From an uncultured archaeon (lineage in GTDB: Archaea; Thermoproteota; Bathyarchaeia; Bathyarchaeales; Bathycorpusculaceae): 64,000 nt of DNA. Under the pieces are notes generated by a model, which was given only the letters and a program-made list of their open reading frames with translations, had not been told where the DNA came from and did no database searches. The position numbers were made by a program, and so were the translations under genes. This document shows positions 10,801 through 51,164 of the stretch, in pieces (the stretch's first letter is position 1; each line of letters begins with the position of its first letter). The DNA is taken from contig CAWALK010000001.1 of NCBI GenBank assembly GCA_963782915.1, positions 64,001 to 128,000 on the forward strand. Direction: 5' to 3'.

Positions 10801-13525
10801 TTCAAGAGAAATATGGCAGCCGCTTCCAAGAGTTAGAAACTAACTGGCAAGACATCGTGTCCGTGCTTGAATGGGTACAGACATGTGCAGGGCGCATTTC
10901 GGCGATATTCCTGTGCCTGAAGCTTACGCTGAAATTGCAGCAAAAGGACCCAGTGCAGCACCATCAAACACTGAGTTGGTTGCCAAACGTGACGCCTCAC
11001 TAAAGGTGCTGGCAGATTTCGCTAAGCGCTTTGACTCTGAGATGCGTTATCAAAACCAGAAGCTCACAGACTGTGAAGTCAAAGTAATCGAAGAACGCAT
11101 AAAAGCCCTACGCGACCGCGTGGACGACTTGCAAGTTTGGATTGACTACAAAGACGCCAAAAACCGCTTTGCACTACGAGGACTTAGACCCATTCTTCAG
11201 GCGCTTGGTAGAGCAGAAGATGCCGGCAGCCGATTTGGTGCCGGTTTTCCGCAAGAGCGTTTATCAGGAATGGATAAACAACCTTTACAACGAAGACCAA
11301 AAACTCGGCAGATTCCGCCGCGAAAACCATGAACAACTAATCACAGACTTCAAGAAGCTTGACCAAGAACTAATCCGCCTCACATCAGGCATGGTAATTG
11401 ACGCCGCCAACGGACAGAAAACCACAAGACATCCTCATCCAAGCCGCAGACACCGAAGCCAGCATACTCTCCAAAGAAGCAGCCAAAAAACGCCGCCTAA
11501 TGCCCATACGCACCTTAATGCAGAAAATCCCCAACTTACTGGTCAAACTAAAACCCTGCCTACTCATGAGCCCAATCTCCGTCAGCCAATTCCTGCCTCC
11601 AGAAATGAAGTTTGACTTAGTCCTCTTCGACGAAGCCTCACAACTGGTCCCAGAAGACGCCATAGGCGCCATCTACCGAGGAAAAACCATCGTAGTCGCA
11701 GGCGACAACAAACAGCTACCGCCAACCTCATTCTTCCAGAAGAACCTGCTTGACGACACCGACTGGGATGAACTCAACGACGAGGACATCGAAGTCTTCG
11801 ACAGCATCCTCGATGAATGCTTAGGCATTGGGTTACCAGTAAAAACGTTGAAGTGGCACTACCGAAGCAGGCATGAAGGCTTAATCGCCTTTTCGAATCA
11901 ACGCTTCTACGACGGCGCCATGATAACTTTCCCCGCAGCAAAGGCAGAAACCGAGAACTTAGGCGTTAAACTCGTCCATGTAGCCGACGGTGTCTATGAC
12001 CGCGGCGGCAAACGAGACAACCCCATCGAAGCCCAAAAAGTCGCCGACTTAGTCTTTGAACACTTCAAAAACTACCCCAAGAAAACCCTCGGAGTAGTCA
12101 CCTTTAGCATTGCACAGATGGATGCCGTACAAGAAGCAATCGACCAACGCCTCGAAACACAGCCAGAATTTGCCCCGTTCTTCAAGGAAGACCGCATCGA
12201 CGGCTTCTTCATCAAAAACCTCGAAAACGTGCAGGGAGACGAACGCGACGTCATATTCTTCAGCGTCGGCTACGGATACGACCAAAACAAACAAATCACC
12301 ATGAACTTTGGTCCACTCAACAAACCCGGCGGTGAACGCAGATTAAACGTGGCAGTTACCCGCGCCCGAGAAAAAGTCGCCCTAATCACCTCCATAAAGG
12401 GCTCAGATGTTGACCCAGACACCCAAGCACTCGGCGTCCAAACCCTACGGACATATCTTGACTATGCTGAACATGGCACAGATTACCTTAAAAGCGGTAA
12501 ATGCAAAGAAGGCACCTTCGACTCAGCGCTCGACGAAGACGTCGCCAACGAAATCAAAAAACTCGGCTACCAAATCATCCCCGAAGTCGGCTGCAGCGGC
12601 TACAAAATCGACATAGGCGTCGTAGACCCAGTTAACAAAGGCTGCTACATCTTGGGTGTAGAATGCGACGGCGCAACCTACCAATCAAGCAGTAGCGCAC
12701 GCGACCGGGATCGTCTGCGCGAACAAGTGCTTAAGCAGCTGGGTTGGCGTGTGCACCGCATCTGGGCACCCGCTTGGGTTGCAAGACGCGACAGCGAAAT
12801 CCGCCGCTTACAAGAAGCCCTCGAACAAGCCAGCAAACAGCAAATCGAAAAAGACTCCCAAAAACCCGCCACTGCACCCATCACTGATGTGCAAAAGAAC
12901 AACTTTGGCGGCATCGAAAAACTAGCCGTACCATACAAAATCTACCCCCTAAAAGCCACCTACAACCCCTACATCAAAGTAGCAAACGGCAAATCAACCG
13001 TTGACTCTAAAACCAAAAACGAATTCCATTTCCCAGAAAACCGCGAAAACCAAACCAAAATGCTTATCGGACCTCATAGCTAACGAAGGCCCCGTACACT
13101 TTGACTATGCCGTTGAACGCTTAGCCGCAACATGGAACATAAAACAGTCTACACCAAAAATTTCGCATGCAGTCAAAGAAGCCCTAAACAAACTCATCCG
13201 CGAACAAAAAGTAACCCTCAAAGGCAGCTTCCTATGGCCAACTGGACTCAAAGAAACCCCCATTCGCATCCCAATGCAAGGCATGCCTGAATCCAAACGC
13301 AAAGCACAATACATTGCACCCGAAGAAGTAGAATCTGCCATGAAACTAGTCGCGCAATATGCACTGGGCATAAGTGAAGAGTCAATGATTGCTGAAACCG
13401 CTAAAGTCTTCGGCATAAACCACTCCGGCGAAGATGCAAAAGTTGTGTTCTCTGAAGTGCTCAAGCGGCTGATAAGAGAGCGAAAACTCGTCTGTAGAGA
13501 CGACGGCGTAATCACCGCCGCCTAA
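7802..13525 (+). CDS. DUF4011 - SF1 helicase - Vsr-like nuclease - DUF3320 protein (Hhe-like defence), split by about 6 indels
   Basis: Motifs W...LIDLS.KN.LL (DUF4011), GPPGTGKSQTI, KPCLLMSP.SVS, FDEASQ, GDNKQLPP, HYRS, NVQGDERD, RRLNVAVTRA, IDIGV..LGVECDG..Y..RDR. Confidence 0.85.
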
Positions 13526-28258: not shown

Positions 28259-31200
28259 ATGGCGAAACCAATGCACAAAAACAGCAACGATTCTAACGGT
28301 ACCTCAGCTGCCAACATAAAACCCGCCATAAGCACCGAAGACGTACTGAGCCTTTCAGCACAAGATATTCTACAGCGCCTAAATACTTCAACCCAGGGAC
28401 TCAGCTCGGGAGAAGCAGAAGAACGCATAGAAATTTACGGTCGCAACGAACTTGCCCGAAAAAAGAAAAGCGCAGCCATAATTAATTTTCTCTCACGCTT
28501 CAAAAGCCCCCTTGTAATCATCTTAATGATAGCAGGCGCCATATCCGCTGCCCTTGGATCATACCCAAGTGTAATCGTCATCTACACCATGGTTATCCTA
28601 AGTGTCACATTAGCATATTATCAGGAAACAAACGCTTCAAAAGCTGCAGAACTACTAAGAGAAAAAGTCGCCACTTCAGCAACAGTAATCAGAGACAAGA
28701 CAAAACAAGAAATTAAACTTCCCTTCATCGTACCTGGCGACATAATCTATCTTTCAGCTGGCGATATTACTCCCGCAGACGCCAGAATCATCGAAGCTAA
28801 AGACTTATTCGTAAACCAGTCAGCCCTAACAGGCGAATCTTTTCCAGTCGAAAAAACCGCTTCGCCGATTAAAACAAGAGGCGGATCCATCACTGAATGG
28901 ACTAACTACTCTTTCATGGGCACCTCCGTTGTAAGTGGAACAGCAACAGCCGTGGTAGTCAAGACTGGCGGCTTAACAGAATACGGAAAAATCGCTCAAA
29001 GACTCGTTGAAAAAGCTCCAGAGACAGAGTTTGAATTAGGCATTAAAAAATTCGGTTTTCTCATCATGCAGGTTACCCTGCTTTTGGTATTATTCGTTTT
29101 CATGATACAGGCGCTTCTTCACCCCGACCCAGAAGGCATATTGACTGCACTGCTATTCGCGGTTGCATTAGCGGTAGGTTTAACGCCTGAACTTCTGCCC
29201 ATGATTATCACCATTAACCTCTCTAAAGGCGCCATGGCGATGTCCAAGAAAGGGGTTATTGTAAAGCGTTTATCCGCTATCGAAACGTTTGGCAGCATGA
29301 ACGTTCTATGTACAGACAAGACCGGAACGCTTACAGAGAACCAAATCAAACTCTTACTACACATCGACATGGAGGGTAAAGAGGACGAAAAAGTACTACT
29401 CTATTCCTTCCTAAACAGCCGTCTTCAAACAGGACTAAAAAGTCCCCTCGACGAAGCTATCCTCAAACATCAAGAAATAGACATAACAGAATATCAAAAA
29501 ATCGATGAAGTACCCTTTGACTTTGTCAGAAGACGAGTCTCAGTCGTAGTGGAGCGCAATAGACAACGATTCTTCCTCGCTAAAGGCGCACCAGAAGAAA
29601 TACTCAAAGTATGCTCATACTATGAACTTGACGGATTAACCGCCGATATTTCCGAAGAGGTCCGACGAAAAATTGAGCAGAAATACTTTGACTTAAGCGC
29701 TGAAGGCTTAAGAGTATTAGGCGTCGCAAGCAAAAAACTCAAGGAAGAAAAAGCGGTTTACTCGATAAATGACGAAAGCAACATGACTTTCTTGGGGTTT
29801 GTTGCTTTCCTTGACCCGCCTAAAGAAACAGCAAAAGAATCACTTCGGTTGCTGGGCAAAGCTGGCGTTGAACTAAAAATCCTCACTGGCGACAATGAAT
29901 TAGTCACCAAGAAAGTATGCGCTGAACTAGGCTTCGAAGTTAAAAGCGTCATTTTGGGTAGCGAAATCCTAAACATGACAGACGAAGCTCTCTCAGCTGT
30001 TGTAGAAGAAGCAAACGTCTTCGCAAGAGTCACACCGGCACAAAAAGACCGAATAATCGAGCTCTTGAAAAAGAACGGCCATGTTGTAGGCTTCATGGGC
30101 GACGGAATTAACGATGCCCCTTCGCTTAAAACCTCAGATGTAGGAGTCTCCGTTAATAACGCGGTCGATGTCGCAAGAGAATCAGCCGACATTATCCTAT
30201 TGAAAAATGATTTGACAGTGCTAGCAGAGGGTGTGCTGGAGGGAAGAAAAACCTTCGGAAACACCATGAAATACATCATGATGGGAGTAAGCTCAAATTT
30301 CGGCAACATGTTTAGCGCCGCTGGCGGCTCATTATTCCTAAACTTTTTGCCAATGTTGCCCATCCAGATTCTGTTAAACAATCTGCTCTACGATACCTCT
30401 CAGACTGTCATGACAACCGACAACGTTGACCCCGAATACATTGAGCGACCCAAAAGATGGGACATTTCGTTCATTCGACGCTTCATGATTACGTTAGGTC
30501 CCGTAAGCTCATTATTTGATTTTGTGACGTTCTTTACAATGCTGTTTGTATTTAATGCTTGGAACAACCCCGCTTTATTCCAGACAGCTTGGTTTACAGA
30601 ATCTCTTTGTTCACAAACACTTGTGGTATTAATTATTCGAACTCGACGTATACCTTTCTATAAAAGCAAGCCCAGTAGATACCTAACTTTAATGCTTCTG
30701 GGTGTAATCGCTTTTGCACTATTAGTGCCCTATACGCCGGTAGGTGACTTCTTCGGGTTTATACCCCTTCCACCCGCGTTTTATTTGGCCTTGGTAGGGA
30801 TATTGGTAGCTTACGCATTGCTAGCTGAAACAGTGAAAAAATGGTTCTATAAACACAATGCCCAACGCTTAGAGCAGGTTCGCGTAGTCAAAGTTAAAAC
30901 TGTCTTTTCGGACCGATCAGTAAAGTTCATGCAGGAGATGATTGCAGTGATTAGCCTACGAAGTGAAGACGAATTCTCAATTGAATCTTTAACTGACGAT
31001 TTAAACAGCGCCATTAACTACCCACTAAACTCAAATGATTTAGCAAGAAACCTCCAATACCTCAGACGTTCAAACTTAATCAGTGTGGACTGGAACAAGC
31101 GAACCATAAAACGTCAAAAAGCACTAAAAGACTACGTTCAAAAAACTGTTATTGACACACCAACTTGGGCAGCGTCAAGTGAGAACTGGCGTAAAATCAA

Positions 31201-31267
31201 CGCTGTACTGCTAAACAAGTGGGGCAAAGTCAACACGGAATACCAGCAACTGCTCACTAAGCAATAA
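28259..31267 (+). CDS. mgtA: Magnesium-translocating P-type ATPase with a C-terminal extension
   Basis: Motifs LTGES, AVGLTPE.LP, DKTGTLT, PFDF.RRR.SV, GDGINDAP, SSNFGNMFS, FQT.WF.ES. Confidence 0.92.
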   Translation: MAKPMHKNSNDSNGTSAANIKPAISTEDVLSLSAQDILQRLNTSTQGLSSGEAEERIEIYGRNELARKKKSAAIINFLSRFKSPLVIILMIAGAISAALGSYPSVIVIYTMVILSVTLAYYQETNASKAAELLREKVATSATVIRDKTKQEIKLPFIVPGDIIYLSAGDITPADARIIEAKDLFVNQSALTGESFPVEKTASPIKTRGGSITEWTNYSFMGTSVVSGTATAVVVKTGGLTEYGKIAQRLVEKAPETEFELGIKKFGFLIMQVTLLLVLFVFMIQALLHPDPEGILTALLFAVALAVGLTPELLPMIITINLSKGAMAMSKKGVIVKRLSAIETFGSMNVLCTDKTGTLTENQIKLLLHIDMEGKEDEKVLLYSFLNSRLQTGLKSPLDEAILKHQEIDITEYQKIDEVPFDFVRRRVSVVVERNRQRFFLAKGAPEEILKVCSYYELDGLTADISEEVRRKIEQKYFDLSAEGLRVLGVASKKLKEEKAVYSINDESNMTFLGFVAFLDPPKETAKESLRLLGKAGVELKILTGDNELVTKKVCAELGFEVKSVILGSEILNMTDEALSAVVEEANVFARVTPAQKDRIIELLKKNGHVVGFMGDGINDAPSLKTSDVGVSVNNAVDVARESADIILLKNDLTVLAEGVLEGRKTFGNTMKYIMMGVSSNFGNMFSAAGGSLFLNFLPMLPIQILLNNLLYDTSQTVMTTDNVDPEYIERPKRWDISFIRRFMITLGPVSSLFDFVTFFTMLFVFNAWNNPALFQTAWFTESLCSQTLVVLIIRTRRIPFYKSKPSRYLTLMLLGVIAFALLVPYTPVGDFFGFIPLPPAFYLALVGILVAYALLAETVKKWFYKHNAQRLEQVRVVKVKTVFSDRSVKFMQEMIAVISLRSEDEFSIESLTDDLNSAINYPLNSNDLARNLQYLRRSNLISVDWNKRTIKRQKALKDYVQKTVIDTPTWAASSENWRKINAVLLNKWGKVNTEYQQLLTKQ

Positions 31268-36687: not shown

Positions 36688-37515
36688 TTATGCTGGTTTA
36701 GAGAGGATTTCTTCTCTGCGGAAAATCTTTACGCCAACATAGAATACGGCGACATCAACGATTGCAAGCACGCCAATGAGTGCAGCCAGCACTAAAGGTC
36801 CAAGAACCAGAACGCCTGAGATTTGCGCAAACACTAAGCCTATCACTGGAAGCAGCAGTACGACGCTGATTTGTTGTGCCTCTTTGAAGCCTTTGACTTT
36901 AGCGGATATGATAACGGTTAAGCCTATGCTGCATAATGCGATGGTTGGGGCAACGCCGAAGATCATGATGAGGAAATTCACGTTTGGCAACAGCAGCATC
37001 CCATTGAACATTCCAAAGGTTAGTGCGTCTACTATCGTTGCGTAGACCCCGAATGAAACGAAGGTTACCAGCATGGCGGGGATGAAGCTGACTAAGATTT
37101 TGCCCAGCAACAATTCGCTGTCCGAGATGGGCGTAGCTAATAGCGCTTCGATGGTTTTGCGTTCTCTCTCGCCTGCAAAACTATCTGAACCCATAACGCT
37201 CGACGCCATTATGGGGATTATGAGGAAGAAGGGTGCAAAGAAGTATAGTACCATGATGTAGATCAGGACTTGGTTTGGGCTAAACTGTGCAATTTGCGCT
37301 TGGATATCTGCTGGCAGGTTGGGTATTAGCGATTGGAAATCGGATGTTGACATGTTTGTTGTGGGTGTAGGTGTGCTTGAGATTCCCAGAACTATTACCG
37401 GCAAAACTACTGAGAATATGATTGGTAAGATGATTATTGGCAGGAGTACTTGCCAGTTGCGTTTGATTTCTAACCAGTCTTTTTTGAAGACTAACCAGGC
37501 TTTGTGGATGTTCAT
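36688..37515 (-). CDS. ABC-2 type transporter permease
   Basis: DSFAGERERKTIEALLATP..ELLLGK motif; TM segments. Confidence 0.9.
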   Translation of the reverse strand: MNIHKAWLVFKKDWLEIKRNWQVLLPIIILPIIFSVVLPVIVLGISSTPTPTTNMSTSDFQSLIPNLPADIQAQIAQFSPNQVLIYIMVLYFFAPFFLIIPIMASSVMGSDSFAGERERKTIEALLATPISDSELLLGKILVSFIPAMLVTFVSFGVYATIVDALTFGMFNGMLLLPNVNFLIMIFGVAPTIALCSIGLTVIISAKVKGFKEAQQISVVLLLPVIGLVFAQISGVLVLGPLVLAALIGVLAIVDVAVFYVGVKIFRREEILSKPA

Positions 37516-38447
37516 TGTGTTTGGTCTCCTTTGATGAGTTTTAGGTATGCTTCTTCCAGTGATGGACGAAGTACGTTGACTGAGAGGATTTGGCCTTCTG
37601 CTTCTACGATGGAGCGCACAATCTCCGGAGTTGCCACACGACTATCATTGACGCTTACCTGCAGCGTGGTTTCCTGCTGCGTTACCTCTTTAGCCGCAGT
37701 ATTTGCTTTGACGGCAGCCAAAACTTTGGGCGTGACCCTTGTTAAGCCAACTTCGATGACTGGTTCACCGCTTATTTTTTGCCGCAATTCATCAGGTGAG
37801 CCAATTAGCAAAACTTTGCCTTTGTTCATAATCAACACTCTTTTGCATAGCTTCTCGGCATCTTCCAAATGATGCGTACTCAGCAGTATAGTGCATTTCT
37901 CACGCTGGCTCAACTCAGCCATTAAATCACGGATTTCCTTCGCAGACTCAGGGTCCAAACCTGCAGTGGGCTCATCCAGAAACATTACAGGCGGCCTATG
38001 TACAGTTGCGCGAACGATGGCTAGTTTCTGTTTCATACCCTTGCTAAACCCTGCGACTTTATCGTTTCTGCGATCCCAGAGGTGGAAAAACTCCAGCAAC
38101 TCCTGAATCCGCTTTTGTCTCTCTGCGGTGTCTGTGATTCCGTATGCTTGTGCGAAGAAGTCCATGTTTTCATAGGCTGTTAGCCGTTCGTAGAGGCTGG
38201 GGTTTTCGGTGAGTATTCCTACTGATTGGCGTACTTTGAGGGGTTCTTTGTGGATGTCGTATCCGGCGACGGTGGCTGTGCCTTTTGTGGGTGAGATGAG
38301 GCATGCGAGCATGCGGATGGTGGTGGTTTTGCCTGCTCCGTTTGGGCCTAGGAAACCGAAGACTTCGCCTTTTTCTATGTTTAGTGTGAGGTTGTTTACT
38401 GCGGTTAGGTTGCTGAATGTTCGCGTTAAGTTGTTGGTTTCAATCAT
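37512..38447 (-). CDS. ABC transporter ATP-binding protein
   Basis: Motifs GPNGAGKTT, FSKGMKQK, LDEPT.GLDP. Confidence 0.92.
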   Translation of the reverse strand: MIETNNLTRTFSNLTAVNNLTLNIEKGEVFGFLGPNGAGKTTTIRMLACLISPTKGTATVAGYDIHKEPLKVRQSVGILTENPSLYERLTAYENMDFFAQAYGITDTAERQKRIQELLEFFHLWDRRNDKVAGFSKGMKQKLAIVRATVHRPPVMFLDEPTAGLDPESAKEIRDLMAELSQREKCTILLSTHHLEDAEKLCKRVLIMNKGKVLLIGSPDELRQKISGEPVIEVGLTRVTPKVLAAVKANTAAKEVTQQETTLQVSVNDSRVATPEIVRSIVEAEGQILSVNVLRPSLEEAYLKLIKGDQTQ

Positions 38448-38527
38448 TGCTGTGCCGTCCTGTTTGTGTTGTTTGTTGTTGATATTGAGGAGTAAGTATT
38501 TAAGTTAGATGAAACCGTTTTCATGTT

Positions 38528-39043
38528 ATGAAACTGATGAAAGTGCTTGACCAAGAAGGCACAAACCTAACCTCCGACCCCACAAACATAACAATTCTAC
38601 GCGAACTAGTAACAGCCGAACAAGCAGTATCCGACATAGCAAAAAAACTAGACCTCCCCACCTTAAATGTCTGGCGCAGAATGCAAAAACTCGAAAAAGC
38701 CAAACTAATCGAATTAACAGGAACCCAAAAAGTAGGGAACCTCGAAAAGAAACTCTACCGCTCAACTGCAACCGTCTTCACCCCCCAACAGTACTTCAAT
38801 TTCACACCAAAAGATGCCAGCCTAACAGAAGCCTTTGAAATCTACAAGAGCATCCAACATAAGATGCTATCAAAAGCTGCAGCTTTCGGCGACATTCCTA
38901 AAGACGCTGACCCAATCGACTACTCATTCTTCGTCAACATGCTAGTATTCGCTGATGTATGCGGAAAACCAGAGGTCCACGCCAAAATAGTCGAGTTAAG
39001 AGAAAAACTCGCCAAATTTAAAACAGAATCCGCAGATGTGTAA
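38528..39043 (+). CDS. HTH transcriptional regulator (ArsR-like)
   Basis: DP..I.IL, HTH, L.KA.LI...GN.EK.Y; divergent from the ABC operon. Confidence 0.75.
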   Translation: MKLMKVLDQEGTNLTSDPTNITILRELVTAEQAVSDIAKKLDLPTLNVWRRMQKLEKAKLIELTGTQKVGNLEKKLYRSTATVFTPQQYFNFTPKDASLTEAFEIYKSIQHKMLSKAAAFGDIPKDADPIDYSFFVNMLVFADVCGKPEVHAKIVELREKLAKFKTESADV

Positions 39044-39075
39044 GCTTTTTTAGAGGCACCACTGCAATCATCTCT

Positions 39076-40332
39076 ATGTCAGCTAATCTGGTTTGGCACA
39101 GAAAAACACTCCCAAATGGCTTAACCGTCCTATTGTATCCGCGGCAATCAGCCAATACTGCCCAGTTGTCGGTGGGCGTTAAGTATGGGTCAAATCAGGA
39201 GCCCAAAGAGCAAGCCGGAATCGCCCATTTCCTAGAGCATATGCTAGCAGGAGGCTCAGACGAACGTATCAAGCTGTCACGAAGTATAGAAGACCACGGC
39301 GGCGTCTTGGATTTCTACACAGATCGTGAACAAGTTTTAGCTACCATGGATGTTTTGCCCGAAAAGCTTTCGGAAGCATCAGCGATTCTGTTCCAACTCT
39401 TTTTCGGCGAAAGTTTTTCTGTTGACAAATTTGAGATTGAACGAAAAATAATCTTAAATGAACTTGCTGAAGTTGCAGATGACCCCGCCGTGAAGGTCGA
39501 AGAAATCCTTCTAGAGAACCTTTTCAAAACCCATCCGATTAGGCGTCCCGTGGGTGGATACCCTAAAACAGTGAAGAAGATAACTTTTGACCAACTATTA
39601 CAGGTGCATAAAGCAAACTATGTTCCCCAAAACATGGTATTGGTACTATCTGGTGACGTCTCTGAAGAGGACCTTGATAAAACCCTTGATGGATTCAAAG
39701 ACAAAACTGCATTGTGTGGCCCCACAAAGAACACGCCGCCAGTTGAGGTTGGCAAACCCCAGTCCTTTGTTGTTGAAGAAAAAGCTGGAATGACCCAAAC
39801 CTACCTTAGTATGGGTGCACGAACCGTCTGCTCCACCCACAAAGACTCTCCCGCACTGGATTTACTTGGAACTCTGCTGGGCGGAGGCACAAGCTCTAGG
39901 CTTTTCATCGAATTGCGCGAGAAACATGCAGTTACCTACGATGTCGGTTCATCCCACTGTAAAGGGACCGATTTTGGCTACTTCAGCATCGACTGCGCAG
40001 TCAATAACAGCAAAGTCGACAAGGCGAGAGCATTAATTATGAAGGAATTGGCGAATCTGCGCTCGGAGACTATTTCGGGGGATGAGTTGGAGCGGGCTAA
40101 GCAGATTATGCTCGGCGGCGTCTTGAGGGGAATGGATAATCCGCATGACACCTACGAAATAATCACTTATATGGAGATGCAGTTTAGCAGTGAATTGGGC
40201 CTCAAAGATTATGTTTCTAAAATTAAGGCAGTCACTGCTGGTGACATTCGAGAAGCTGCGATTAAACACTTAAACGAAGATAGCCTCTGCACGGCTGTTA
40301 TTAACCCGATAAAGAACAAAAAAGTACCATGA
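39076..40332 (+). CDS. M16 (pitrilysin-family) metallopeptidase
   Basis: L.NGL, G.AHFLEHM (HxxEH), SSRLF.ELREK. Confidence 0.92.
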   Translation: MSANLVWHRKTLPNGLTVLLYPRQSANTAQLSVGVKYGSNQEPKEQAGIAHFLEHMLAGGSDERIKLSRSIEDHGGVLDFYTDREQVLATMDVLPEKLSEASAILFQLFFGESFSVDKFEIERKIILNELAEVADDPAVKVEEILLENLFKTHPIRRPVGGYPKTVKKITFDQLLQVHKANYVPQNMVLVLSGDVSEEDLDKTLDGFKDKTALCGPTKNTPPVEVGKPQSFVVEEKAGMTQTYLSMGARTVCSTHKDSPALDLLGTLLGGGTSSRLFIELREKHAVTYDVGSSHCKGTDFGYFSIDCAVNNSKVDKARALIMKELANLRSETISGDELERAKQIMLGGVLRGMDNPHDTYEIITYMEMQFSSELGLKDYVSKIKAVTAGDIREAAIKHLNEDSLCTAVINPIKNKKVP

Positions 40333-41343: not shown

Positions 41344-41937
41344 TTAGGCGCTTTTCTCACTCTTAATTTCCTTCTTAGCTGCCGTAATCGGTTTTTTGAG
41401 AACAGGCAATTCTGGTTGTGGCTTATTTTCCGCTTTAATCTGAACAGGATAGACACTGTAGCTTACGCTCAGCTTATGCGGCGAAGAAAGGGCGATCCAA
41501 AGTTTGCTTACATCATCCATTGACTGCGCATCCAATGTGACTCGCAATTCTTCTTTGCTGTCCTTTAAGTCGCCCTGCAGGTCGTCGCCTCGAAGAACAG
41601 GCCTCTCAGCGAATAACTGCATAATTTTTCCAAGAACAACCTGATCCATTAGAGGGTTCTGAGTCAGCGGCGTAATCAGGTAACGCAAATTCAGGTATAG
41701 CAGGGTTTTTGGTTCTTCTGGGTTTTGTGGCTGCGGCTGATTGCGCATGCTCGTATATTCGGTGACGCTGTAGAGGTATATGGAGACTTGCGCTGATTTC
41801 TGGGCATCATTTGGAGCCAGAAAACTGATTTGTTCCTCGCTGCGAATGATTTTGCGTAGTTGCTTGTCCTCTTTTATGCCAGTCCAGATTTTATCAGCCA
41901 ATGTTTGGGTGACGCTGCTTAGGTTGTTGCTGCTCAA
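41344..41937 (-). CDS. DUF4255 / Pvc16-N domain protein (eCIS cap/tail-terminator-like)
   Basis: VS.YLY.V.E...RN, L.LNLRYLIT, LG..MQ.F..RP, KLW.AL....KLSV.Y.V. Confidence 0.8.
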   Translation of the reverse strand: MSSNNLSSVTQTLADKIWTGIKEDKQLRKIIRSEEQISFLAPNDAQKSAQVSIYLYSVTEYTSMRNQPQPQNPEEPKTLLYLNLRYLITPLTQNPLMDQVVLGKIMQLFAERPVLRGDDLQGDLKDSKEELRVTLDAQSMDDVSKLWIALSSPHKLSVSYSVYPVQIKAENKPQPELPVLKKPITAAKKEIKSEKSA

Positions 41938-41950
41938 AGCTATCCCTAGC

Positions 41951-42406
41951 TTACTTTACCCGTTGCATAGATTCAAACACGATTTCGAGTGTTTCGATGG
42001 CTACTTCGTTGCCTTTGGCATTGAGATCGGGTGCTTTGTATTTGCTGGGCCACGCATTGGTGAAGTCCCATCGTGCAGCATCGTTGCCTTCCTCATCGAT
42101 TAGGACCACCGATAGGTTTCGGCGGCTCTGTGACATTTTGCCTTGCTCGACTAGTCTGCGCCAATTATAAAGTTCCATAGATGCCGTAAGACCCGACACC
42201 AGGATGAGGTTGCCAAAAGACGCCTGCCCCGCCTGCTTTTGAGTGCTGGCTGCGGTTCCTTCTCTGTGCTCGATAACTTCGCTTGCTGAATCAGGGAGTA
42301 TGATTTCTGAAAAGCTGGCTTGTACAATCCCGCTTATTTCAACTCTAAACCTGTAATTTCCATATGGATCTTTTCTTTGAGTGGTTGCATTTTTTTGTGC
42401 TGACAT
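41951..42406 (-). CDS. T4 gp19-like tail tube protein (eCIS Afp1/Afp5-like)
   Basis: R.DPY.NY.FRVEI.G, F.E, E.REG, LY.W, L.DE.G...ARW.F..AWP.KY..PDLNA..NEVAIETLE. Confidence 0.9.
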   Translation of the reverse strand: MSAQKNATTQRKDPYGNYRFRVEISGIVQASFSEIILPDSASEVIEHREGTAASTQKQAGQASFGNLILVSGLTASMELYNWRRLVEQGKMSQSRRNLSVVLIDEEGNDAARWDFTNAWPSKYKAPDLNAKGNEVAIETLEIVFESMQRVK

Positions 42407-43111: not shown

Positions 43112-43375
43112 ATGTGTTTGGAAGAAGCCGTAATAGAAATAGGGAACGTCATTCATTATTTCCAAAAAATCAACGTTGCCATAGTCGAATTATCTCTGCC
43201 CCTCTCTGTCGGAGACCGCATCCTAATCAAGGGACCCTCGACTGATTTCGAGCAGACTGTGGATTCTATTGAGGTTGACCGTAAACCTATTAAACGCGCT
43301 GAAGGCGGACAAAGCGTAGGTTTAAAGTTATCTCAGTTGACGCGGGTAAAAGACGTTGTTTTCAAAAAAATCTAA
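43112..43375 (+). CDS. Translation-factor-like beta-barrel protein
   Basis: IG.V.HYF.KI.VA, L.VGD.I.IKG..TDF.Q.V.S, GQSVGLK. Confidence 0.75.
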   Translation: MCLEEAVIEIGNVIHYFQKINVAIVELSLPLSVGDRILIKGPSTDFEQTVDSIEVDRKPIKRAEGGQSVGLKLSQLTRVKDVVFKKI

Positions 43376-44502
43376 GGGATTATTTCGGCGCCGTTAAACT
43401 TTATATAATCAAAATCTTCCAGCCTAATTCGTCCGCTTTGAATGAGTTGTTGTATTCTTGGCAGATTACGCTGCACCGATTCAATCAATTGCTCCACAGT
43501 AAAGCAGACTTTGCCATAAGCATCGTCAGGCCACCGCTTAACAATGTTAGTGTATAGGCATCGTCCCCCGCAAACACCCAAAATTTTGCATTCACTGCAT
43601 GGTTTCTGGCTAACAAAGAGTTTAGGCAATTTTAGCGGATCTGCGTCTTTTATGTGGCCCATATAGTAGGCTTTCATTCCCCACATGGTTGGGCAAGGTA
43701 TTATTTGGCCATCCATCTGGATAGAGTAGTTTATCCATCCGCTGCCACAACGCATCAACGCATTCTCTTCACCGTGCAAGAGTGAGTTTGTGATGCCCAG
43801 AATCGGGTAGAGCTTGAGCACCTTTCCCGTCTGCTCCATCTCGTCTACCCAGTAACGGACTAGAGAATCAACGCCTGGGATATAGCTGGATTTGGTCCAT
43901 TCCTCAAAGTTGCGGCGTTTAAAATCGTTGCCCCAGAAACCCGCGTTGAGTTGCCAATGAATTGAAGTGAACGAGAATTCATCATTATGCAGGAGCCATT
44001 TCACTTGTTTTTCTATATCGGTTTGCTCCATGATCGTCATTCTTGCTATTAACTCGCCTTTGAAACCGTTTTGTTTTATGAGTTTGAGGTTATCGATGAC
44101 TTTGCGGAAGGTGCCTTTTCCACGGTAATAGTCTGTGAGGGCTTCTTCGCCATCGATTGATACCAGCAGAGTATGGAAGCGGTTGACGTATTGGGGCTCA
44201 AGTTTATCGAGCAGTAAACCGTTTGTTTGCATCATGTACAGTTTAGGCGTGACTGTATCCATGATTTGGCGCAGTTTATCCATCTGCATTAAGGGTTCAC
44301 CGCCATAGAAAGTTAAAACACAGTCGGGGTCCTTTTTGACAAAGCCTTCCAGTTGGGCTATGTCGTAGTTGGCTTTGCGGGGCAAGTTATAATCGACTTC
44401 TATGTCGTCTCCGAATTCCTCGTCAAAGTCATCCATGCTTTCGCCGAAGCAGTATTTGCATTGCAGGTTGCAGTCGCTGGTGAGCAGTAGATGGAAGAAC
44501 AT
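43372..44502 (-). CDS. Radical SAM/SPASM protein (TIGR04084/AF0577-like)
   Basis: CNLQCKYC, FYGGEPL, QTNG.LL, SIDG; SPASM region CGSG...PCP...CxxC....CGGRC. Confidence 0.85.
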   Translation of the reverse strand: MFFHLLLTSDCNLQCKYCFGESMDDFDEEFGDDIEVDYNLPRKANYDIAQLEGFVKKDPDCVLTFYGGEPLMQMDKLRQIMDTVTPKLYMMQTNGLLLDKLEPQYVNRFHTLLVSIDGEEALTDYYRGKGTFRKVIDNLKLIKQNGFKGELIARMTIMEQTDIEKQVKWLLHNDEFSFTSIHWQLNAGFWGNDFKRRNFEEWTKSSYIPGVDSLVRYWVDEMEQTGKVLKLYPILGITNSLLHGEENALMRCGSGWINYSIQMDGQIIPCPTMWGMKAYYMGHIKDADPLKLPKLFVSQKPCSECKILGVCGGRCLYTNIVKRWPDDAYGKVCFTVEQLIESVQRNLPRIQQLIQSGRIRLEDFDYIKFNGAEIIP

Positions 44503-44528
44503 GACTTAACCTTAGATATTGGGGATGC

Positions 44529-45869
44529 TTAATAGTATTTTTCTGCTAATTTCTTGGCATCTTCATAATTCTTATCAGTTTCAGGTGTCGAATTAATTTG
44601 TTTCTTGTTTTTCTTCTTGAGTAGGTTTTTGTTTTTTACCTACTTTTTCTGCTTCTTTTGTAGCTTTCTTTTTGGCGTTTTCAATATAGCTTTTGAGGTC
44701 CCGGTCTTTCATAAGTTTTTCAGGCAAAGTTTCAGGAGCATAAATCAACGGCAAAACCGCGAGAAAGAGGAAGACACTAGCAAATGGGAAAATCGTACTG
44801 CCTCTGCATGAGAGAGAAATGGCGTAAACAGTAATTGCATGAAATAGGAGGATATGTAAGGCAATGCGCCTAAAACATAGAATTTGTCGCCTTTTCCATT
44901 TTGGGCCAGATCACCCCATAATGTAAAAACAAATAATACGAAAAATATTCCCCAAGCTATACCGTCAGCTACGAAATAAATTATGCTTCCCAATAATAGA
45001 TCTGCGCCATTGATGGAAAACATCCCTATTACGGCATATCCGATACCAAGCATAACGAAACCTAATATCGATAATCGTTTACGGCCCCACTTATCAGCAA
45101 CCAAACCACATATTACTGCTACAATGGCTGTTACAACATTCTCCATTGCAACCAGTAGAGTATATTGAGCGTTATTTGTCGCAAAAAGAGTACTTTGAAT
45201 TGGCATAGTCATAAAATTAATGAGAGTAAACATACACCAAGGGACAAAGTACAGAACAAAGGATTTATTGAAAATTATTTTTGTATAATTTTACCTTACT
45301 AGTCTGTTTAATCGGTTCCTCTTTGCCAATTAAGGAGATAGAAAAATACTAAACCTATCAACCGAATAAAAGCAAGAATCAAGCAACTATGCAATAAGCG
45401 AGTCGAATACTACTAAACCAAGGATAGCAAATGTAATTCCAATTATCAAAAATGAAATCCCACTAATTTTTGCTCTATTCTCAACAGTTGTAACGACAGC
45501 GTGATAGCCCATAGTAGCGGGCATGCCTATGCCGAAATATACCCCAAAGACAGCGGATATTATTACTAAACCACTAAAACTTGAAGCGTTATAGACCAAG
45601 GGGTATAACAGATAAAATAACACCGCTTGCTAACCAGACTAAAAGGAAATCTCCTCGCTTCTTGAATTTGTCGAATAAAAGTACCCAGCGAATGCTGAGA
45701 GTACTATTGCCAAGGTGTTAATTCCAATTATTTGAAGTGTCAATAATGTGGCATCTTGTTTTGGAAGTAGGTCCTTTATGGTATCAAATGCAAGTAAATA
45801 CCACACAAAAGCGTTCACTACTAGCATTATGTTTGCAGTGGCAAATCTTAGGCTTGTCCTATTTGGCAT
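44529..45869 (-). CDS. MFS-like multipass membrane protein (several indels)
   Basis: Fragments 45639-45887, 45387-45623 and 44745-45233 join into one gene; motif G.VADKWGRK; tail PETLP...YEDAKKLAEKYY. Confidence 0.7.
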
Positions 45870-46071
45870 GGGCCATGTGTGGAACATCTACACTTTAGTT
45901 ACAACTATTGTGTGCAGCAAGTTAAGGGTTGAGTATGAATAAACCAGATTAGTGGTAACTAAACTACCGAAAAAGCTTTAAAGTATATCTGTAGAACAGG
46001 AATACAGAGAGGAGACCTAAATTGAAAACAAACACACAAAATCATAAGATCAGTAGGTTGGTATTAGTTAA

Positions 46072-47070
46072 TTATTCAAAGTAGGTGAGAGGGACTAATA
46101 GGAGATCTCCCAGTTCTTCTCTTATTTTTCCATTAATTGAAGTTGGCAATTGTTGGACGACCGTTTTTGTGTCGGCTACCAAAGTTTTTTGAAGAAGTTT
46201 GACCTCGTTTGATTCAAGGACTATTTCAATAATTTTCTGATGGCGCTCATTCTGCAATGAATCTCCATTTAACAAGGGGAACAGCATACTCTTGATTTGT
46301 GGGTTTTCAAGAGCATATATAATCGGTAAAGGAGGGCATTCATTTTTCAACCTACTTTTAAGCTCCTCAAAATCTAAGAGATCAGCAAACTCCTCCACTA
46401 TGATAGAAGTAACCCCGTATGCTCTGCCAAATTGCCCAAGCCTTTCAACATCATCCGAATTACCCCCTCCAATGATGGCGCCGATTTTCATAGTTAACTC
46501 AGGAACAACCGCTTTTAACCGTATTATCTCATTGAATTTAGCTGGGTTGAAATCTTGTTGATTGTGAAGCTGGATTTCAAGGATTTCCGCATTACAGATT
46601 TCCAAAACTGCTTCGGTAACTAACTTCATGACTCTTCCGAATGCTTCAGGGTTTTGGTTGATTGCTTCACTTAACCTCTTGAAACCTTCCGCTAGTAAAA
46701 TATCCCCCGCAAGAATAGTTGTTGCCAAGCCATATTTTCCAAAAACTGTTTGTTTCATGTTTTTTCGAACCGACTGGTCAAGGACATCATCGTGTAAATC
46801 GGCTGAGGCAGTTATGAAAACTATTGCTTCAGCAAAAGGAGCAACTCTTTTGGTGTCGCCTTCAACTGCTTCACAAGACATAGTAATTAATGCTGGAAAA
46901 ACAGGTATGGGGCTATGGAGCGTAACATTAGCGAAGTATCGGAGTGCTTGTGAGATATAACTGTCATCGTTGAAGTTTACAATGATGCTGTTTTTAGTGT
47001 TATTCATGGCGGGTCCGCCTTTTTGCTTGAAACTTCTTTTAATGGCGCGTAACTTCGAATCGTTGGACAT
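46072..47070 (-). CDS. Polyprenyl-synthetase-fold protein with degenerate IPP-binding motifs (ComQ-like candidate prenyltransferase)
   Basis: First Asp-rich motif LHDDVLD and ILAGD.LL retained; GKxxRP replaced by PIPVFP, RRG by RKN, second DDxxD by EEFAD. Confidence 0.8.
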   Translation of the reverse strand: MSNDSKLRAIKRSFKQKGGPAMNNTKNSIIVNFNDDSYISQALRYFANVTLHSPIPVFPALITMSCEAVEGDTKRVAPFAEAIVFITASADLHDDVLDQSVRKNMKQTVFGKYGLATTILAGDILLAEGFKRLSEAINQNPEAFGRVMKLVTEAVLEICNAEILEIQLHNQQDFNPAKFNEIIRLKAVVPELTMKIGAIIGGGNSDDVERLGQFGRAYGVTSIIVEEFADLLDFEELKSRLKNECPPLPIIYALENPQIKSMLFPLLNGDSLQNERHQKIIEIVLESNEVKLLQKTLVADTKTVVQQLPTSINGKIREELGDLLLVPLTYFE

Positions 47071-47187
47071 TGATTTCAGCTCTTATCTTAGTTAACCAAA
47101 GTATTTTAAAATCAAATTAGGCTCTTTTTGCTTATTAATCAATGGGAAGATTAAGGGATAAAAAAAATTACCCCTTGTTTTTGTTAA

Positions 47188-47241
47188 TTAGTACCATCCG
47201 ACAGATGCTGGCGCGCGTGCTTTGATGATTTTTCTGTTCAT
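47188..47241 (-). CDS. 17-aa putative precursor peptide MNRKIIKARAPASVGWY
   Basis: RBS GAGGTGAA (47246-47253) just before the ATG; TAA stop; hairpin and T-run downstream; directly upstream of the ComQ-like gene. Confidence 0.7.
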   Translation of the reverse strand: MNRKIIKARAPASVGWY

Positions 47242-47280
47242 GTATTTCACCTCTTAGTGTAGCCCTGATTATTGTGATTT

Positions 47281-48120
47281 TTACTCCAAGTATCCATTGA
47301 TCCATGCGAGTACTTGAGGTGTGTCAAGTCTTGTGTGGTAGCTTACGCCGCCACAGTTGCTGCTTGAAACAAATGCGTTGACTGCCAATACGGTGTCTTT
47401 TCCGTCTTGGGTGTAGATTACAGGGCCGCCTGAATCGCCGAATACTATTGCGCCTTTGCCGCCGCCGTTGTTGGCGGTTAATTTTAGGTAGCAGCTGCTG
47501 CCTTCAAAGTTGGATGGTACCAGTTGTACTTGGGCGCTGTTGCGTGATAGGGTGCCAATCCAGGAATATTCTGGGCCATTGTTTCTTGGGTTGGTTTGGG
47601 TTTGCATGCCATATCCGATGATTGTCAAATCTGTTTTGGATGCTAAGGTTTCCGCTATACCTGCTTGGGGAAGTGCTGGAAACTCTGTTATGCCAGTGAC
47701 TGGTTGGTCCAGTATTATTAAGCCGATGTCGCTAGTAGAGAATTCTTGGTTGCCTGAAAATGCAGGAGCATATTCTGAATAGGTTACTCGTGTACCTGTG
47801 TAGATTGTGTCTGCACCATAATAGATGACTTGTCCGTCTTGGATGGCGTAGCTGATTGGACCCTGATCGAAGCAGACGCTGACTGCCTCTGCGCCGAGCA
47901 GGCTGTGTCCGGCTGTAACCATCACTGTTGGGGAAATGAGGAATCCGCTACAGTAGCCGAAGGGATGCTGTCGGGCGGCATCGCTGAAGAGTACGACGAC
48001 TCCAACGTATGGGGTTGCGTCTGGCCGGGAGTTGCCTGTTATTGCTGTAGCTGTGCCAAAGAATAATGGTGCAGAAAGTAAACATGATAGTGCAATTATT
48101 ATTGCCCAAGCTTTTTTCAT
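47281..48120 (-). CDS. Secreted S1 (trypsin-fold) serine protease
   Basis: Signal peptide; motifs CSGFLI, TAGH, DIGLI, GDSGGP. Confidence 0.9.
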   Translation of the reverse strand: MKKAWAIIIALSCLLSAPLFFGTATAITGNSRPDATPYVGVVVLFSDAARQHPFGYCSGFLISPTVMVTAGHSLLGAEAVSVCFDQGPISYAIQDGQVIYYGADTIYTGTRVTYSEYAPAFSGNQEFSTSDIGLIILDQPVTGITEFPALPQAGIAETLASKTDLTIIGYGMQTQTNPRNNGPEYSWIGTLSRNSAQVQLVPSNFEGSSCYLKLTANNGGGKGAIVFGDSGGPVIYTQDGKDTVLAVNAFVSSSNCGGVSYHTRLDTPQVLAWINGYLE

Positions 48121-48278: not shown

Positions 48279-51164
48279 ATGAGCCAAACCAAGCAAATGG
48301 AGCAGAAATGGCAGCAAAAATGGGAAGCTGCGCATCTCTTCGAAGCCGACCCTGACCCCAAACGCGAAAAAAAGCTGGTAACTTTCCCGTTTCCATACAT
48401 GAATGGCCCATTGCATGTTGGCCACACCTTTACTGCCAGCCGCGTTGACGCTTATGCCCGTTTCAAGCGTATGCAGGGTTACAATGTGCTTTGGCCTTGG
48501 AGTTGGCACTGGACCGGTCAACCGCTGCTTGGTGCATCTCTGCGGGTGGCAAGGGGCGATGAAGCTTACATCAAAGTGCTGCGCGAAGTCGATGGCGTCC
48601 CTGAAGCGGAACTTCAAAAATTTGTTGACCCCTTCTATATGGCTCAATACTACACTAACGAGGGCCGTGCCGCTGTTAAGGGCGTTGGTTTCTCGGTTGA
48701 TTGGCGCCGCGAATTCACCACTGTTATGCCGACTTTCCAAAAGTTTGTGGAGTGGCAGTACAAGAACCTCAAAGAAAAAGGCTATGTCACCCGTGGCACT
48801 CATCCGGTGGTTTGGTGTCCTAAAGATCAATCTCCAACCGGTGACCATGACCGCCAAAGCGGCGAAGGCGTCACCCCCGAAGAATACACCCTAATCAAGT
48901 ACAAACTGCCCGACGGCACGGTTTTGCCTGCGGCGACTTTCCGCCCCGAAACCATCTACGGCATCACTAACATGTGGATTAACCCGGACGCCACCTACGT
49001 GGAAGCAGACGTCAACGGCGAAACCTGGATTATTAGCCAGGAAGCCGCTGAAAAACTCAAAGAACAAGAGAAAAAAGTCACAGTCAAACGCAGCTTCAAA
49101 GGCGCAGAACTCATAGGCAAAACCTTCGAAAACCCCGTTACAAAACTCAAGTTTCCGATTCTGCCCGGCTGGTTTGTTAACCCCAAAACCGCCACCGGCG
49201 TCGTCTACAGCGTCCCAGCCCATGCACCCTACGATTACCTCGCACTCACGAGACTTGCAGCAGAAGCCCGAAGTGCTCAGCCCAATTCGGCGTGGACCCC
49301 GCGATGGTGCAGGCGATTAAACCAATCTCAATCATTAAAGTCGAAGGCTTCGGCGAATACCCCGCAGTCGAAATCGTCGAAAAAATGGGCATCAAAAACC
49401 AAAATGATCCCAAAGCCGACGAAGCTACCAAAGAACTCTACAAAAAAGAGTTCCACGGAGGCAAACTAAAAGAAAACTGCGGACCCTACGCGGGCAAAAG
49501 CATCCGCGAAGCCAAAGACATCTTGATCGGTGACTTCAAAAAAATGGGCGTCGCCGACAGCATGTATGACCTCTCCGAACCAGTAGTTTGCCGATGCATG
49601 ACACAATGCATCGTAAAGATCCTCTCGGATCAATGGTTCCTTAACTACTCCGATCCGCAGTGGAAGGAGTTGGCGCATCAGGCGGTTGCGCAGATGAACA
49701 TTTACCCCGACTCAGCTAAACCATGGTTCAACACCGTGATCGATTGGCTACGCGAATGGGCTTGTGCACGCACAACTGGTTTTGGTACGCCGTTGCCGTG
49801 GGGTAAAGGCTGGATAATTGAGACGTTAAGCGACAGCACCGTTTACATGGCATTCTACACCATAAACAAACACATTAAACAGAACAGCATAAAACCTGAA
49901 TCACTAACAACCGATGTTTTCGACTATATCTACCTCGGCAAAGGCAATGCAGCGGAACTCTCACAATCCGTGGGAATCGACGTAACACTGTTGGATTCGA
50001 TGCGTAGCGAGTTCCTCTATTGGTACCCGCTTGACTTCCGCAACAGCGCCAAAGAACTGGTACCAAACCACCTTAGCTTCTGCATATTCCACCACGCCGC
50101 ATTATTCCCACCTGAGCATTGGCCCAGAGCCATCGGCGTCAACGGCATGCTAATGGTTGAAGGACAAGGCATGCATAAAAGCAAAGGCAACTTCATCACC
50201 ATGAAGGGCGCAGTCGAAAAGTACGGAGCAGATGCTACTCGCTGTGGGTTGCTGTTGGGTGCTGAAGGGATGGATGATCCCGATTGGCGAGCTGAAAACG
50301 TCAATGATCTCAAAACCAAATTTGAGAGTGTGATGGGTTTTGCAAGCAATATCCTTGCAACAGCCAAGAATGACGATAATACGGCTTTGGAGCGTTGGTT
50401 AGAGAGCCGTTTGCAGCAGCGCATAAAAGATGTTACAGCTGCGCTTGATGAGTTAAAGACTCGCACTGCACTGCAAACCGCGCTGTTTGAAACGTGGAAT
50501 GACCTGCGATGGTACATCCAACGTAAGGGCAACACCAACGCCAAGGTACTGGGCGATGCAGTTAAAGACTGGTTAAAGATGCTTGCGCCCTTTGCACCAT
50601 TCATGTGTGAGGAACTCTGGAGCCAAACAGGCGAAGAAGGCTTCATCAGCGTCGCCAAATGGCCAGTCTACGACCCAGCTAAAATAGATGCAGCCGCTGA
50701 GGAACAAGAAAACCTAGTCACTGCTGTCATGGGCGATACCAACAACATCTTGAAAGCCATGAAAATCGCGCCTGCCAAAATCGTTTACTACACCGCTGCT
50801 CCATGGAAATGGCAGGTTTACCTCAAAATCGTCGAGAAAACCTTAGCTGGCGAAGCAAAAATCAACGAGTTAATGAAGGAATTCGCCTCTGACCCCGCCT
50901 TGAAGCCGCATATGAAAGACATCGCCCCAATGGTACCCACGCATAATTAAAGCACTCACCAAAGTTTCAGGCGACCGCAAAGCAAACATAACCAAAATCC
51001 GCGAAGTAGACGAAAAAGCAATCCTCCAAGGCACAGCAGCATTCTATAAAGACCGCTTCAACGCAGAAATAGCAGTTTACGGCGAATCTGACGAGCAACG
51101 CTTCGACCCCAAAAGCCGCTCAGCAATGGCAATGCCCTATCAGCCAGCAATCTACATCGAATAA
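48279..51164 (+). CDS. leuS: Leucine-tRNA ligase (archaeal type), split by 2 indels
   Basis: PYMNG.LHVGH, DW.REF.T, T.RPET, IE.LSDST.Y, MHKSKGN, C-terminal P...AIYIE. Confidence 0.95.

Follow-up and report, generated by a model that had tools for sequence, protein, structure and literature searches.

The 64,000-nt stretch of DNA analyzed here (the window; all coordinates are positions in it) belongs to a metagenome-assembled genome (MAG) of the Bathyarchaeia and carries one allele of a hypervariable gene cassette that is widespread in one order of this class. The core of this cassette consists of an enzyme resembling isoprenyl diphosphate synthases (IDS), one or two genes for tiny putative precursor peptides and a transporter of the major facilitator superfamily (MFS). 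We consider it probable that the enzyme prenylates the tiny peptides. The explanation that suits the locus best, and that we favor, is prenylation of a tryptophan (Trp) in a ribosomally made peptide, as carried out by ComQ or PalQ, followed by export through the MFS protein. An initial annotation of the window had proposed a ComX/ComQ-like system at this locus, and the comparative evidence supports this: Trp-containing open reading frames (ORFs) adjoin the enzyme genes, peptide types co-vary with the enzyme clades, the two peptides of a locus share their cores, the peptides are under selection and the donor site of the enzyme appears to be kept.

Related loci were collected in a locus scan, in which 260 stretches matched the pattern; 244 of them encode a relative of the enzyme and 79 loci were kept. 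Almost all of these stem from MAGs assigned to Candidatus Bathyarchaeota / Bathyarchaeia. The peptide survey covered 96 non-identical enzyme ORFs (103 matches minus 7 duplicates), and adjacent peptides were picked automatically with the requirement of a Trp in the last four residues and at least three Lys or Arg. The initial annotation had made its proposal depend on conserved short ORFs beside homologues of the enzyme, led by a ribosome-binding site and with a Trp near the C-terminus. Indeed, 82 of the 96 enzyme ORFs have at least one adjacent tiny, basic, Trp-ended ORF, and in controls for a strict position such ORFs occur at a few per cent. The 97 picked peptides comprise 21 from a gene on the strand of the enzyme and upstream of it (peptide gene A) and 76 from a convergent gene on the opposite strand (peptide gene B). 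Their median length is 16 residues (range 9-30), and they hold 422 Lys and Arg vs 32 Asp and Glu. Two features lie outside the picking rule: the last Trp is terminal in 35 and penultimate in 57 peptides, together 92 of 97, and a Gly directly precedes it in 54 of 97. In the strict test we required an opposite-strand ORF with a Trp in the last four residues, at least three Lys or Arg and a stop codon within -30 to +70 nt of the enzyme stop codon, and 58 of 76 loci were positive. The same test was positive in 2 of 76 loci on the other strand, in 1-10 of 65-74 when positions were shifted by 1-2.5 kb, and, over 50 shuffles, in 3.9 of 76 loci on average and in 9 at most. The short ORF is no chance occurrence.

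The initial annotation had recognized a single peptide gene. Its 17-residue ORF on the same strand, gene A, is real, but the commoner copy on the opposite strand, gene B, had been overlooked. Gene A is preceded by GAGGTG 7 nt upstream of its ATG. Among the first 22 enzyme genes examined (the window and relatives) it recurs in seven, at the same upstream position and on the same strand, and homologues occur at further loci among L033-L111. Gene B is found at 20 of these 22 genes, while the remaining two carry A only, and a B-equivalent ORF accompanies 76 of the 96 enzyme genes. Its stop codon lies at, or a few bases from, the stop codon of the enzyme gene, in the spacer before the MFS gene. In the window the stop-to-stop segment of B, KQTHKIIRSVGWY, ends at 46067. 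A 12-sequence alignment (A3) revealed that the window has TTG where 10 others have ATG, and that it contains one extra base. Since this base is found in no other aligned sequence, we regard B as frameshifted in the assembly. Shine-Dalgarno (SD)-like matches before the start codons comprise 5-6 of 6 positions for A and mostly 4-5 for B. A TTTAAAG block lies about 45 nt before the B start, in alignment columns that are invariant or nearly so, and the block before B may represent a TATA box with TFB-recognition element (BRE) plus the SD site. Where B and the MFS gene diverge, the spacer holds a second conserved DNA block (about 45915-45950, A3 columns 75-110, consensus AAAGTTAAGCGTTGAGAATT.ATAAAC); it could be the promoter or an operator of the MFS gene. 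Oligo-T tracts terminate archaeal transcription, and the T8 run 3' of gene A may end a transcript of the protease gene and gene A. Peptide genes A and B, members of one family, are too short for standard gene callers.

For comparison of the peptides we defined the core as the three residues before the last Trp through to the end. Both cores of the window read SVGWY, and their coding sequences have a different base at each synonymous position and end in different stop codons. All 12 B genes of the alignment retain the Arg that precedes the core, by way of five different codons (AGA, CGA, AGG, CGG, and CGT), the Gly is kept through GGT, GGC, and GGA, and the Trp is likewise retained in all 12. 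The codon usage in this alignment shows that the peptide is under selection. At loci with both genes, the cores of A and B were identical in 12 of 20 automatically picked pairs, and most of the others were one residue apart; when the partners were permuted in 2000 trials, 1.3 pairs had identical cores on average and 5 at most, among genomes that are related to each other. Peptide C-termini match between the copies of one locus and differ between genomes. Furthermore, peptide types track enzyme clades on a quick maximum-likelihood tree of 88 enzymes and the canonical synthase of the genome, likewise among related genomes and with SH-aLRT support only. The clades include those with KPIRPIR..WW, with FGGW, with NWGGW (A only), with xxGW[YFIHMVL] (the clade of the window, in both A and B) and with KVLAW. 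A genome-wide search for further peptide copies gave no convincing case, with a narrow regular expression that found only B and whose pattern does not include A.

The enzyme matches PF00348 with about 80 bits (1.8e-22). Its best NCBIfam synthase score, 93.7 bits vs a cut-off of 468, lies far below every synthase equivalog cut-off, and the genome encodes two canonical PF00348 genes elsewhere (197 and 172+27 bits). In 88 homologues D94, D95, and D98 of the first DDxxD, known as the first motif rich in aspartate (FARM), are invariant, as are K103, T108, and R240. The second such motif (SARM) is altered to [D/E]E[F/I]xD, with EEFAD in the window, and the FQxxDDxxD segment reads t-i-r-[D/E]-E-[F/I]-x-D in the family. 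Alignments to the geranylgeranyl diphosphate (GGPP) synthase of P. horikoshii and to the canonical synthase of the genome itself further revealed that the Arg of motif I has given way to Phe or another hydrophobic residue, RRG to Lys and a variable residue, the His after RRG to Phe, Tyr or other residues, and KT to KA. In farnesyl diphosphate (FPP) and GGPP synthases the replaced residues belong to the pocket for isopentenyl diphosphate (IPP). Because DDxxD is invariant while the Arg, His, and Thr positions are replaced, the donor site looks kept and the residues of the IPP pocket look lost. One review describes that FARM binds the donor and SARM positions IPP (PMC13290415). The initial annotation had called the enzyme devoid of IPP-binding motifs. 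This holds for the Arg of motif I, the second Arg of RRG, the His, the Thr of KT and the Gln preceding the second motif, all of which are gone, but not for the aspartate-rich motifs, the first of which is invariant and the second altered.

The AlphaFold model of the enzyme is all-helical (predicted local distance difference test, pLDDT, 95.3; predicted template modelling score, pTM, 0.93). Its best fold match is GGPP synthase 1wy0 with a template modelling (TM) score of 0.81, and the Trp farnesyltransferase Ord1 reaches 0.71-0.78. The fold does not discriminate between these functions, because canonical synthases and Ord1 both match. On the sequence level, P. horikoshii GGPP synthase matches at 8e-42, and Ord1 matches the family profile at about 5e-28. 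The ESM Atlas returned only clusters named "polyprenyl synthetase", and public names of the family are "polyprenyl synthetase family protein" or "geranylgeranyl pyrophosphate synthase" only. No ComQ-named family was among the 14 NCBIfam matches listed, all of which are synthase or polyprenyl-transferase families. Modelling of the enzyme-peptide complex, as the initial annotation had suggested, was performed with the L092 enzyme and its own natural 30-residue ORF, the window peptide being below usable length. It lends weak support: the complex scored 0.40 (runs 0.40, 0.44, and 0.35), and the best of three controls 0.02. The runs agree in at least 69% of contacts, and the pLDDT of the partner is at least 45. 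Of 80 complexes with solved structures 58 reach that mark, as do 2 of 110 mismatched pairs; of those that do, only 7 of the 80 solved complexes and both mismatches score 0.60 or less.

A co-oriented MFS gene lies at most 900 nt downstream of 80 of the 90 enzyme genes for which at least 1500 nt of downstream sequence are available. In nearly all relatives it is intact (394-463 residues), and all six intact homologues tested passed the MFS_1 cut-off of 33.4 bits with 38.9-59.2 bits. The initial annotation of an MFS-like membrane protein is upheld for the family, but the gene in the window is broken by frame changes: comparison by tblastn with an intact 466-residue homologue revealed at least three out-of-frame stretches, and the largest fragment reached 26.1 bits to MFS_1, a weak match. 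The genes for the enzyme, the protease and the radical S-adenosylmethionine (SAM) protein are intact in the window. Because the MFS gene and peptide gene B carry frame errors, this allele may be decaying, or the assembly may be wrong. Similar breaks were observed at other places. The gene for leucyl-tRNA synthetase (LeuRS) is split into two frames in the window and is split, too, in the relatives L013, L014, L015, L020, and L027, which suggests indel-prone long-read assemblies rather than biology. A helicase/nuclease-like gene at 9663-13525 (AAA_11, AAA_12, MTES_1575 restriction endonuclease, DUF3320) is spread over five overlapping ORFs; these at least four frame changes within 3.9 kb point to an indel-rich assembly or a pseudogene-rich genome. 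The second canonical polyprenyl synthase of the genome (G000 contig C12:281257-282028) likewise occupies two adjacent frames, with 172 and 27 bits to PF00348.

The protease is an accessory of a minority of loci. Among the 83 enzyme homologues with at least 1200 nt of upstream sequence, it is encoded upstream of 20; 16 loci have protease and A, four the protease without A, five A without the protease and 58 neither. Of the four loci with the protease but without A, three do carry A once the start rule is relaxed. Inspection by eye revealed a signal-like N-terminal segment of the protease together with the His, Asp, and GDSGG motifs. Among solved structures, elastases come nearest (E about 2e-4), and in the alignment with them a residue other than Asp occupies the S1-pocket position. 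We also considered cleavage by the protease after the basic leader, which is unsupported by these features.

The cassette sits at a conserved site and varies independently of it. A profile search of 401 genomes of the class gave a match at E <= 1e-35 in 189 of them, and the best E-values per genome are bimodal with a gap between 1e-44 and 1e-60. Strong matches were found, among the matches listed, in 118 genomes, namely 33 of the genus, a further 51 of the family, a further 26 of the order and 8 of other orders. In nine syntenic loci of the genus, the enzymes are 27-67% identical in pairwise comparison (median 33) and the MFS proteins 32-66% (median 38), as compared to 65-89% (median 73) for the radical SAM protein. 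There are discordant pairs, with flanks 87-89% identical but enzymes only 35-38%, and one pair with flanks at 70% and enzymes at 66%. Because flank and enzyme identities are discordant, we conclude that deeply diverged cassette types share one site and are replaced independently of it. The product of the upstream flanking gene, which we take to be LeuRS from its sequence and from its length in relatives, is 72-92% identical to its counterparts next to the cassette in relatives. It lies upstream in 35 of 80 loci, and the radical SAM gene lies downstream in 49 of 79. The radical SAM protein matches TIGR04084 with 307 bits vs a cut-off of 225, and 33 of 41 relatives have one above-cut-off match each, including G034 and G009, in which no cassette enzyme was found. 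We know of no function for TIGR04084 (AF0577-type). The radical SAM gene is probably a conserved flank outside the cassette.

Tandem forms of the cassette were also seen: L014 has the order enzyme-MFS-enzyme-MFS, L019 enzyme-MFS-MFS and L022 enzyme-enzyme-MFS, the upstream enzyme copy of L022 being without a peptide gene of its own. G005, at first sight an MFS gene without enzyme, is uninformative, as a run of N covers the expected position of the enzyme gene. The four co-oriented minus-strand genes described in the initial annotation (protease, 17-residue ORF, enzyme, and MFS gene) were all recovered (Table 1). Its remark on AT-richness proved correct as well, with a GC content of 0.34-0.41 over 44400-47200 vs 0.44-0.53 in the flanks.

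Table 1. Features of the cassette and its flanks in the 64,000-nt window.
Feature	Position	Strand	Basis or remark
Secreted S1 (chymotrypsin-fold) serine protease, cassette accessory	47281-48120	-	Pfam Trypsin 9e-11
Peptide gene A, 17 aa, MNRKIIKARAPASVGWY	47188-47241	-	Between protease and enzyme; same strand as enzyme
T8 run 3' of peptide gene A	47160-47167	-	Read from sequence
Trans-IDS-like enzyme, 332 aa, candidate peptide Trp prenyltransferase	46072-47070	-	PF00348
Peptide gene B, convergent with enzyme, reads ...KIIRSVGWY	46022-46067	+	Stop TAG 46065-46067
Promoter-like block and GGAG ribosome-binding site of peptide gene B	45970-46021	+	Conserved alignment columns
MFS transporter gene, disrupted; candidate exporter of peptide product	44532-45887	-	tblastn vs intact homologue
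Radical SAM/SPASM protein, TIGR04084, conserved flank	43372-44502	-	NCBIfam 1.4e-91
LeuRS (presumed), other conserved flank, two overlapping ORFs	48279-50950	+	ORFs 48279-49469 and 49292-50950

Beyond the radical SAM gene the surroundings of the cassette hold several further genes. An 87-residue ORF at 43112-43375 is divergent from the radical SAM gene and 56-70% identical in L027, L031, L032, and L117; it has a weak match to EF-Tu domain 2 (0.0037). About 1 kb beyond the radical SAM gene lie two contractile-injection or phage-tail-like genes (41344-42406) with matches to Pvc16_N (7.6e-35) and to a gp19/CIS1-type tail tube (2.3e-40). A P-type cation ATPase (1002 residues), an ABC-2 transporter pair and an M16 peptidase, encoded at 28259-31267 and 36688-40332, are ordinary neighbors.

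We infer the chemistry, the prenyl donor, leader removal or other processing, export or sensing, and the biological role as follows. The precursors would be peptides of about 12-20 residues with a Lys/Arg-rich N-terminal part and a genome-specific C-terminal core of the form xxGW or xxGWx. About a quarter of the loci add the secreted S1 protease together with a second peptide gene on the same strand. The enzyme would bind an allylic prenyl diphosphate via the retained DDxxD, and the small residues before this motif would admit a long chain such as that of GGPP. Instead of being condensed with IPP, the prenyl group would pass to the indole ring of a peptide Trp in last or next-to-last position. 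Export of the lipidated peptide would then fall to the MFS protein, and the protease, where present, may trim the product outside the cell. The product might be a strain-specific signal like the ComX pherotypes, or it might be a cationic lipopeptide weapon for which the MFS protein serves as exporter and immunity factor.

Several observations weigh against prenylation of the peptides. The peptides are far shorter than the precursors ComX and PalX and have no recognizable leader domain. A Pfam and NCBIfam scan of neighboring ORFs gave the MFS protein, the radical SAM protein, the protease and small ORFs, but neither a histidine kinase nor any other receptor. In the window both the MFS gene and peptide gene B are non-intact. 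The complex score falls in the weak band, and the fold is nearer to canonical synthases than to Ord1. The second motif is still acidic, which leaves room for ordinary diphosphate chemistry on another acceptor. The Gln directly preceding this motif in the canonical synthase of the genome aligns with Ile223 in the window enzyme and mostly with Thr in the family. In addition, the peptide statistics have their own limits. The Trp near the C-terminus and the richness in Lys and Arg are partly circular, because the picking rule required both, and the counts overstate independence, because the genomes are related. By these rules 14 of the 96 enzyme ORFs have no peptide; three of them are fragments or upstream tandem copies, and an entire clade (L077, L084, and L085) is among them. 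Some automatic picks were wrong: the A pick of L015 is in the wrong frame, and those of L022 and L086 were false in the core comparison.

The rival with the most in its favor, although an unlikely one, takes the tiny ORFs as small proteins or regulators rather than substrates. The enzyme would then act on an isoprenoid lipid or a non-peptide acceptor, the MFS protein would move the product, and the peptides would regulate or bind the pair. Such a role would agree with the enzyme-MFS pair being the most constant feature (80 of 90 loci), with the 14 of 96 enzyme genes that have no detected peptide, with a second acidic motif that is partly kept and with a fold closest to true synthases. However, it leaves unexplained why a fixed C-terminal Trp, usually after Gly, should be maintained, why the peptide motif tracks the enzyme clade and why the two genes of a locus share their core, and it has to face the loss of residues that bind IPP in canonical synthases. 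Peptide B cannot be a leader peptide for either large gene, because it is encoded on the strand opposite to both. We give even less credit to the idea that the enzyme is an altered subunit or paralogue of an ordinary prenyl diphosphate synthase, a heteromeric partner or chain-length variant, with incidental short ORFs beside it. The database names (geranylgeranyl diphosphate synthase and polyprenyl synthetase) and the P. horikoshii match at 8e-42 would speak for it. Yet the enzyme scores far below all synthase equivalog cut-offs in a genome that already has two canonical genes, the linked ORFs occur far above chance, and rapid evolution with exchange between genomes is not typical of a housekeeping gene for lipids. 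We rate this subunit idea as very improbable.

Hardly better is the case for the radical SAM/SPASM enzyme (TIGR04084) as the true or a second peptide maturase, which might for example form a streptide-type cross-link between Trp and a basic residue; this we hold to be improbable, if a shade less so than the subunit idea. In 49 of 79 loci its gene follows the MFS gene on the downstream side, and the families that match it next best are peptide maturases, for instance PapB (1.5e-31). Against this, single matches above the cut-off are present in 33 of 41 relatives, among them again G034 and G009, in which no cassette enzyme was found, the gene is far more conserved than the cassette, and cassettes also occur without it. 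Moreover, nine genomes with the gene away from the cassette show no adjoining MFS gene, enzyme or tiny peptide. We judged a maturase role of this neighbor unlikely on its distribution, its conservation and these non-cassette contexts. Least probable of all, in our opinion, is that the short ORFs are untranslated and that what is conserved is an element of DNA or RNA, for example a bidirectional terminator, an antisense RNA to the 3' end of the enzyme gene or an operator. Gene B does abut or overlap the stop codon of the enzyme gene, so that its transcript, if not ended at once, necessarily continues into the enzyme gene as antisense RNA. A nucleic acid element would, on the other hand, hardly account for conservation at the amino acid level with synonymous turnover, seen across clades of little DNA similarity, nor for the SD-like sites before the start codons, nor for gene A, which encodes the same core in a different context.

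If the peptides are indeed prenylated, a wider interpretation suggests itself, which we put forward tentatively and hold to be rather doubtful at present. The cassette could serve polymorphic peptide signalling or kin discrimination in Bathyarchaeia, with alleles exchanged between species at the fixed site between the LeuRS and radical SAM genes. Each allele would then hold a matched set, in which a Trp prenyltransferase and an MFS exporter go with one or two minimal precursors that set the type by their last 4-6 residues. In sediments and soils, Bathyarchaeia rank among the most abundant uncultured archaea. To our knowledge, archaeal ribosomal natural products are barely charted, and we know of no peptide-based cell-to-cell signal in archaea. 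The system would, if this signalling role is true, be the first archaeal peptide pheromone system known and yield the first known archaeal prenylated ribosomal peptide. A separate recruitment of the enzyme from an archaeal GGPP-synthase-like ancestor would show a convergent invention of ComQ/PalQ chemistry. Furthermore, the family would supply new catalysts for peptide lipidation whose natural substrates are very short and whose donor is possibly C20, and the locus would give a marker for strain-level social or antagonistic behavior in Bathyarchaeia. The initial annotation knew of no described archaeal equivalent, and the literature that we searched agrees with this: it gave no archaeal ComQ- or PalQ-like system, in a coverage that leaves out most subscription journals, so that a description elsewhere is possible.

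The ComQ/ComX system of Bacillus, which geranylates or farnesylates an internal Trp, shares with the cassette an enzyme derived from a polyprenyl synthase that has kept FARM and has an altered second motif, and a small Trp-containing precursor gene that adjoins the enzyme gene. The comQXP locus is highly polymorphic, and the cassette resembles what is generally held of it in being a polymorphic locus exchanged independently of its flanks. In contrast to the Bacillus system, the cassette is archaeal, and its enzyme is closer in sequence to archaeal GGPP synthase and has no Gln before the second motif. The ComX precursor has roughly 55 residues, whereas the cassette precursors have 9-30 and carry the Trp in terminal or penultimate position. 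An MFS transporter takes the place of the histidine kinase ComP as membrane partner, and the usual peptide gene lies on the opposite strand. Canonical archaeal synthases such as P. horikoshii GGPP synthase (1wy0) are the best match in both sequence and fold and have the first aspartate-rich motif and the helical bundle in common with the cassette enzyme, in which, however, the Arg of motif I, the second Arg of RRG, the His, the Thr of KT and FQ are replaced. Ord1 (PDB 9v4g and 9v4h), which farnesylates free tryptophan, is alike in its trans-IDS fold; it differs in acting on a free amino acid, and its mutated Gln has no counterpart in the cassette enzyme.

According to the review PMC13290415, ComQ, the P domain of ChrPC and PalQ are trans-IDS-like peptide prenyltransferases, all characterized members of which act on Trp. 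In these enzymes SARM is described as repurposed for Trp recognition, and a Gln before SARM, conserved in ComQ, PalQ, and Ord1, as part of that recognition (PMC13290415). The same review states that PalQ requires a terminal Trp and prefers GW and GGW, and that a residue after the Trp abolishes activity. For ComQ, PMC10853753 lists FARM without SARM; it describes the PalQ cluster as a kinase, a precursor of the nitrile hydratase-like leader peptide (NHLP) type and PalQ, and PalX as having a nitrile-hydratase-type leader and the core DNVRRFFW. Like the PalQ/PalX system of Paenibacillus alvei with its kinase PalP, the cassette combines a C-terminal acceptor Trp, a favored Gly before it and a trans-IDS fold. 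Unlike it, the cassette peptides have no leader like that of PalX, 57 of 97 carry one residue after the Trp, and the kinase partner and the conserved Gln are absent. Because Gln, leader, and kinase are absent and the peptide gene is convergent, we regard the cassette as working like the ComQ and PalQ systems and not as a member of the ComQ family. As judged from these descriptions, PalQ is its nearest published counterpart at least as much as ComQ.

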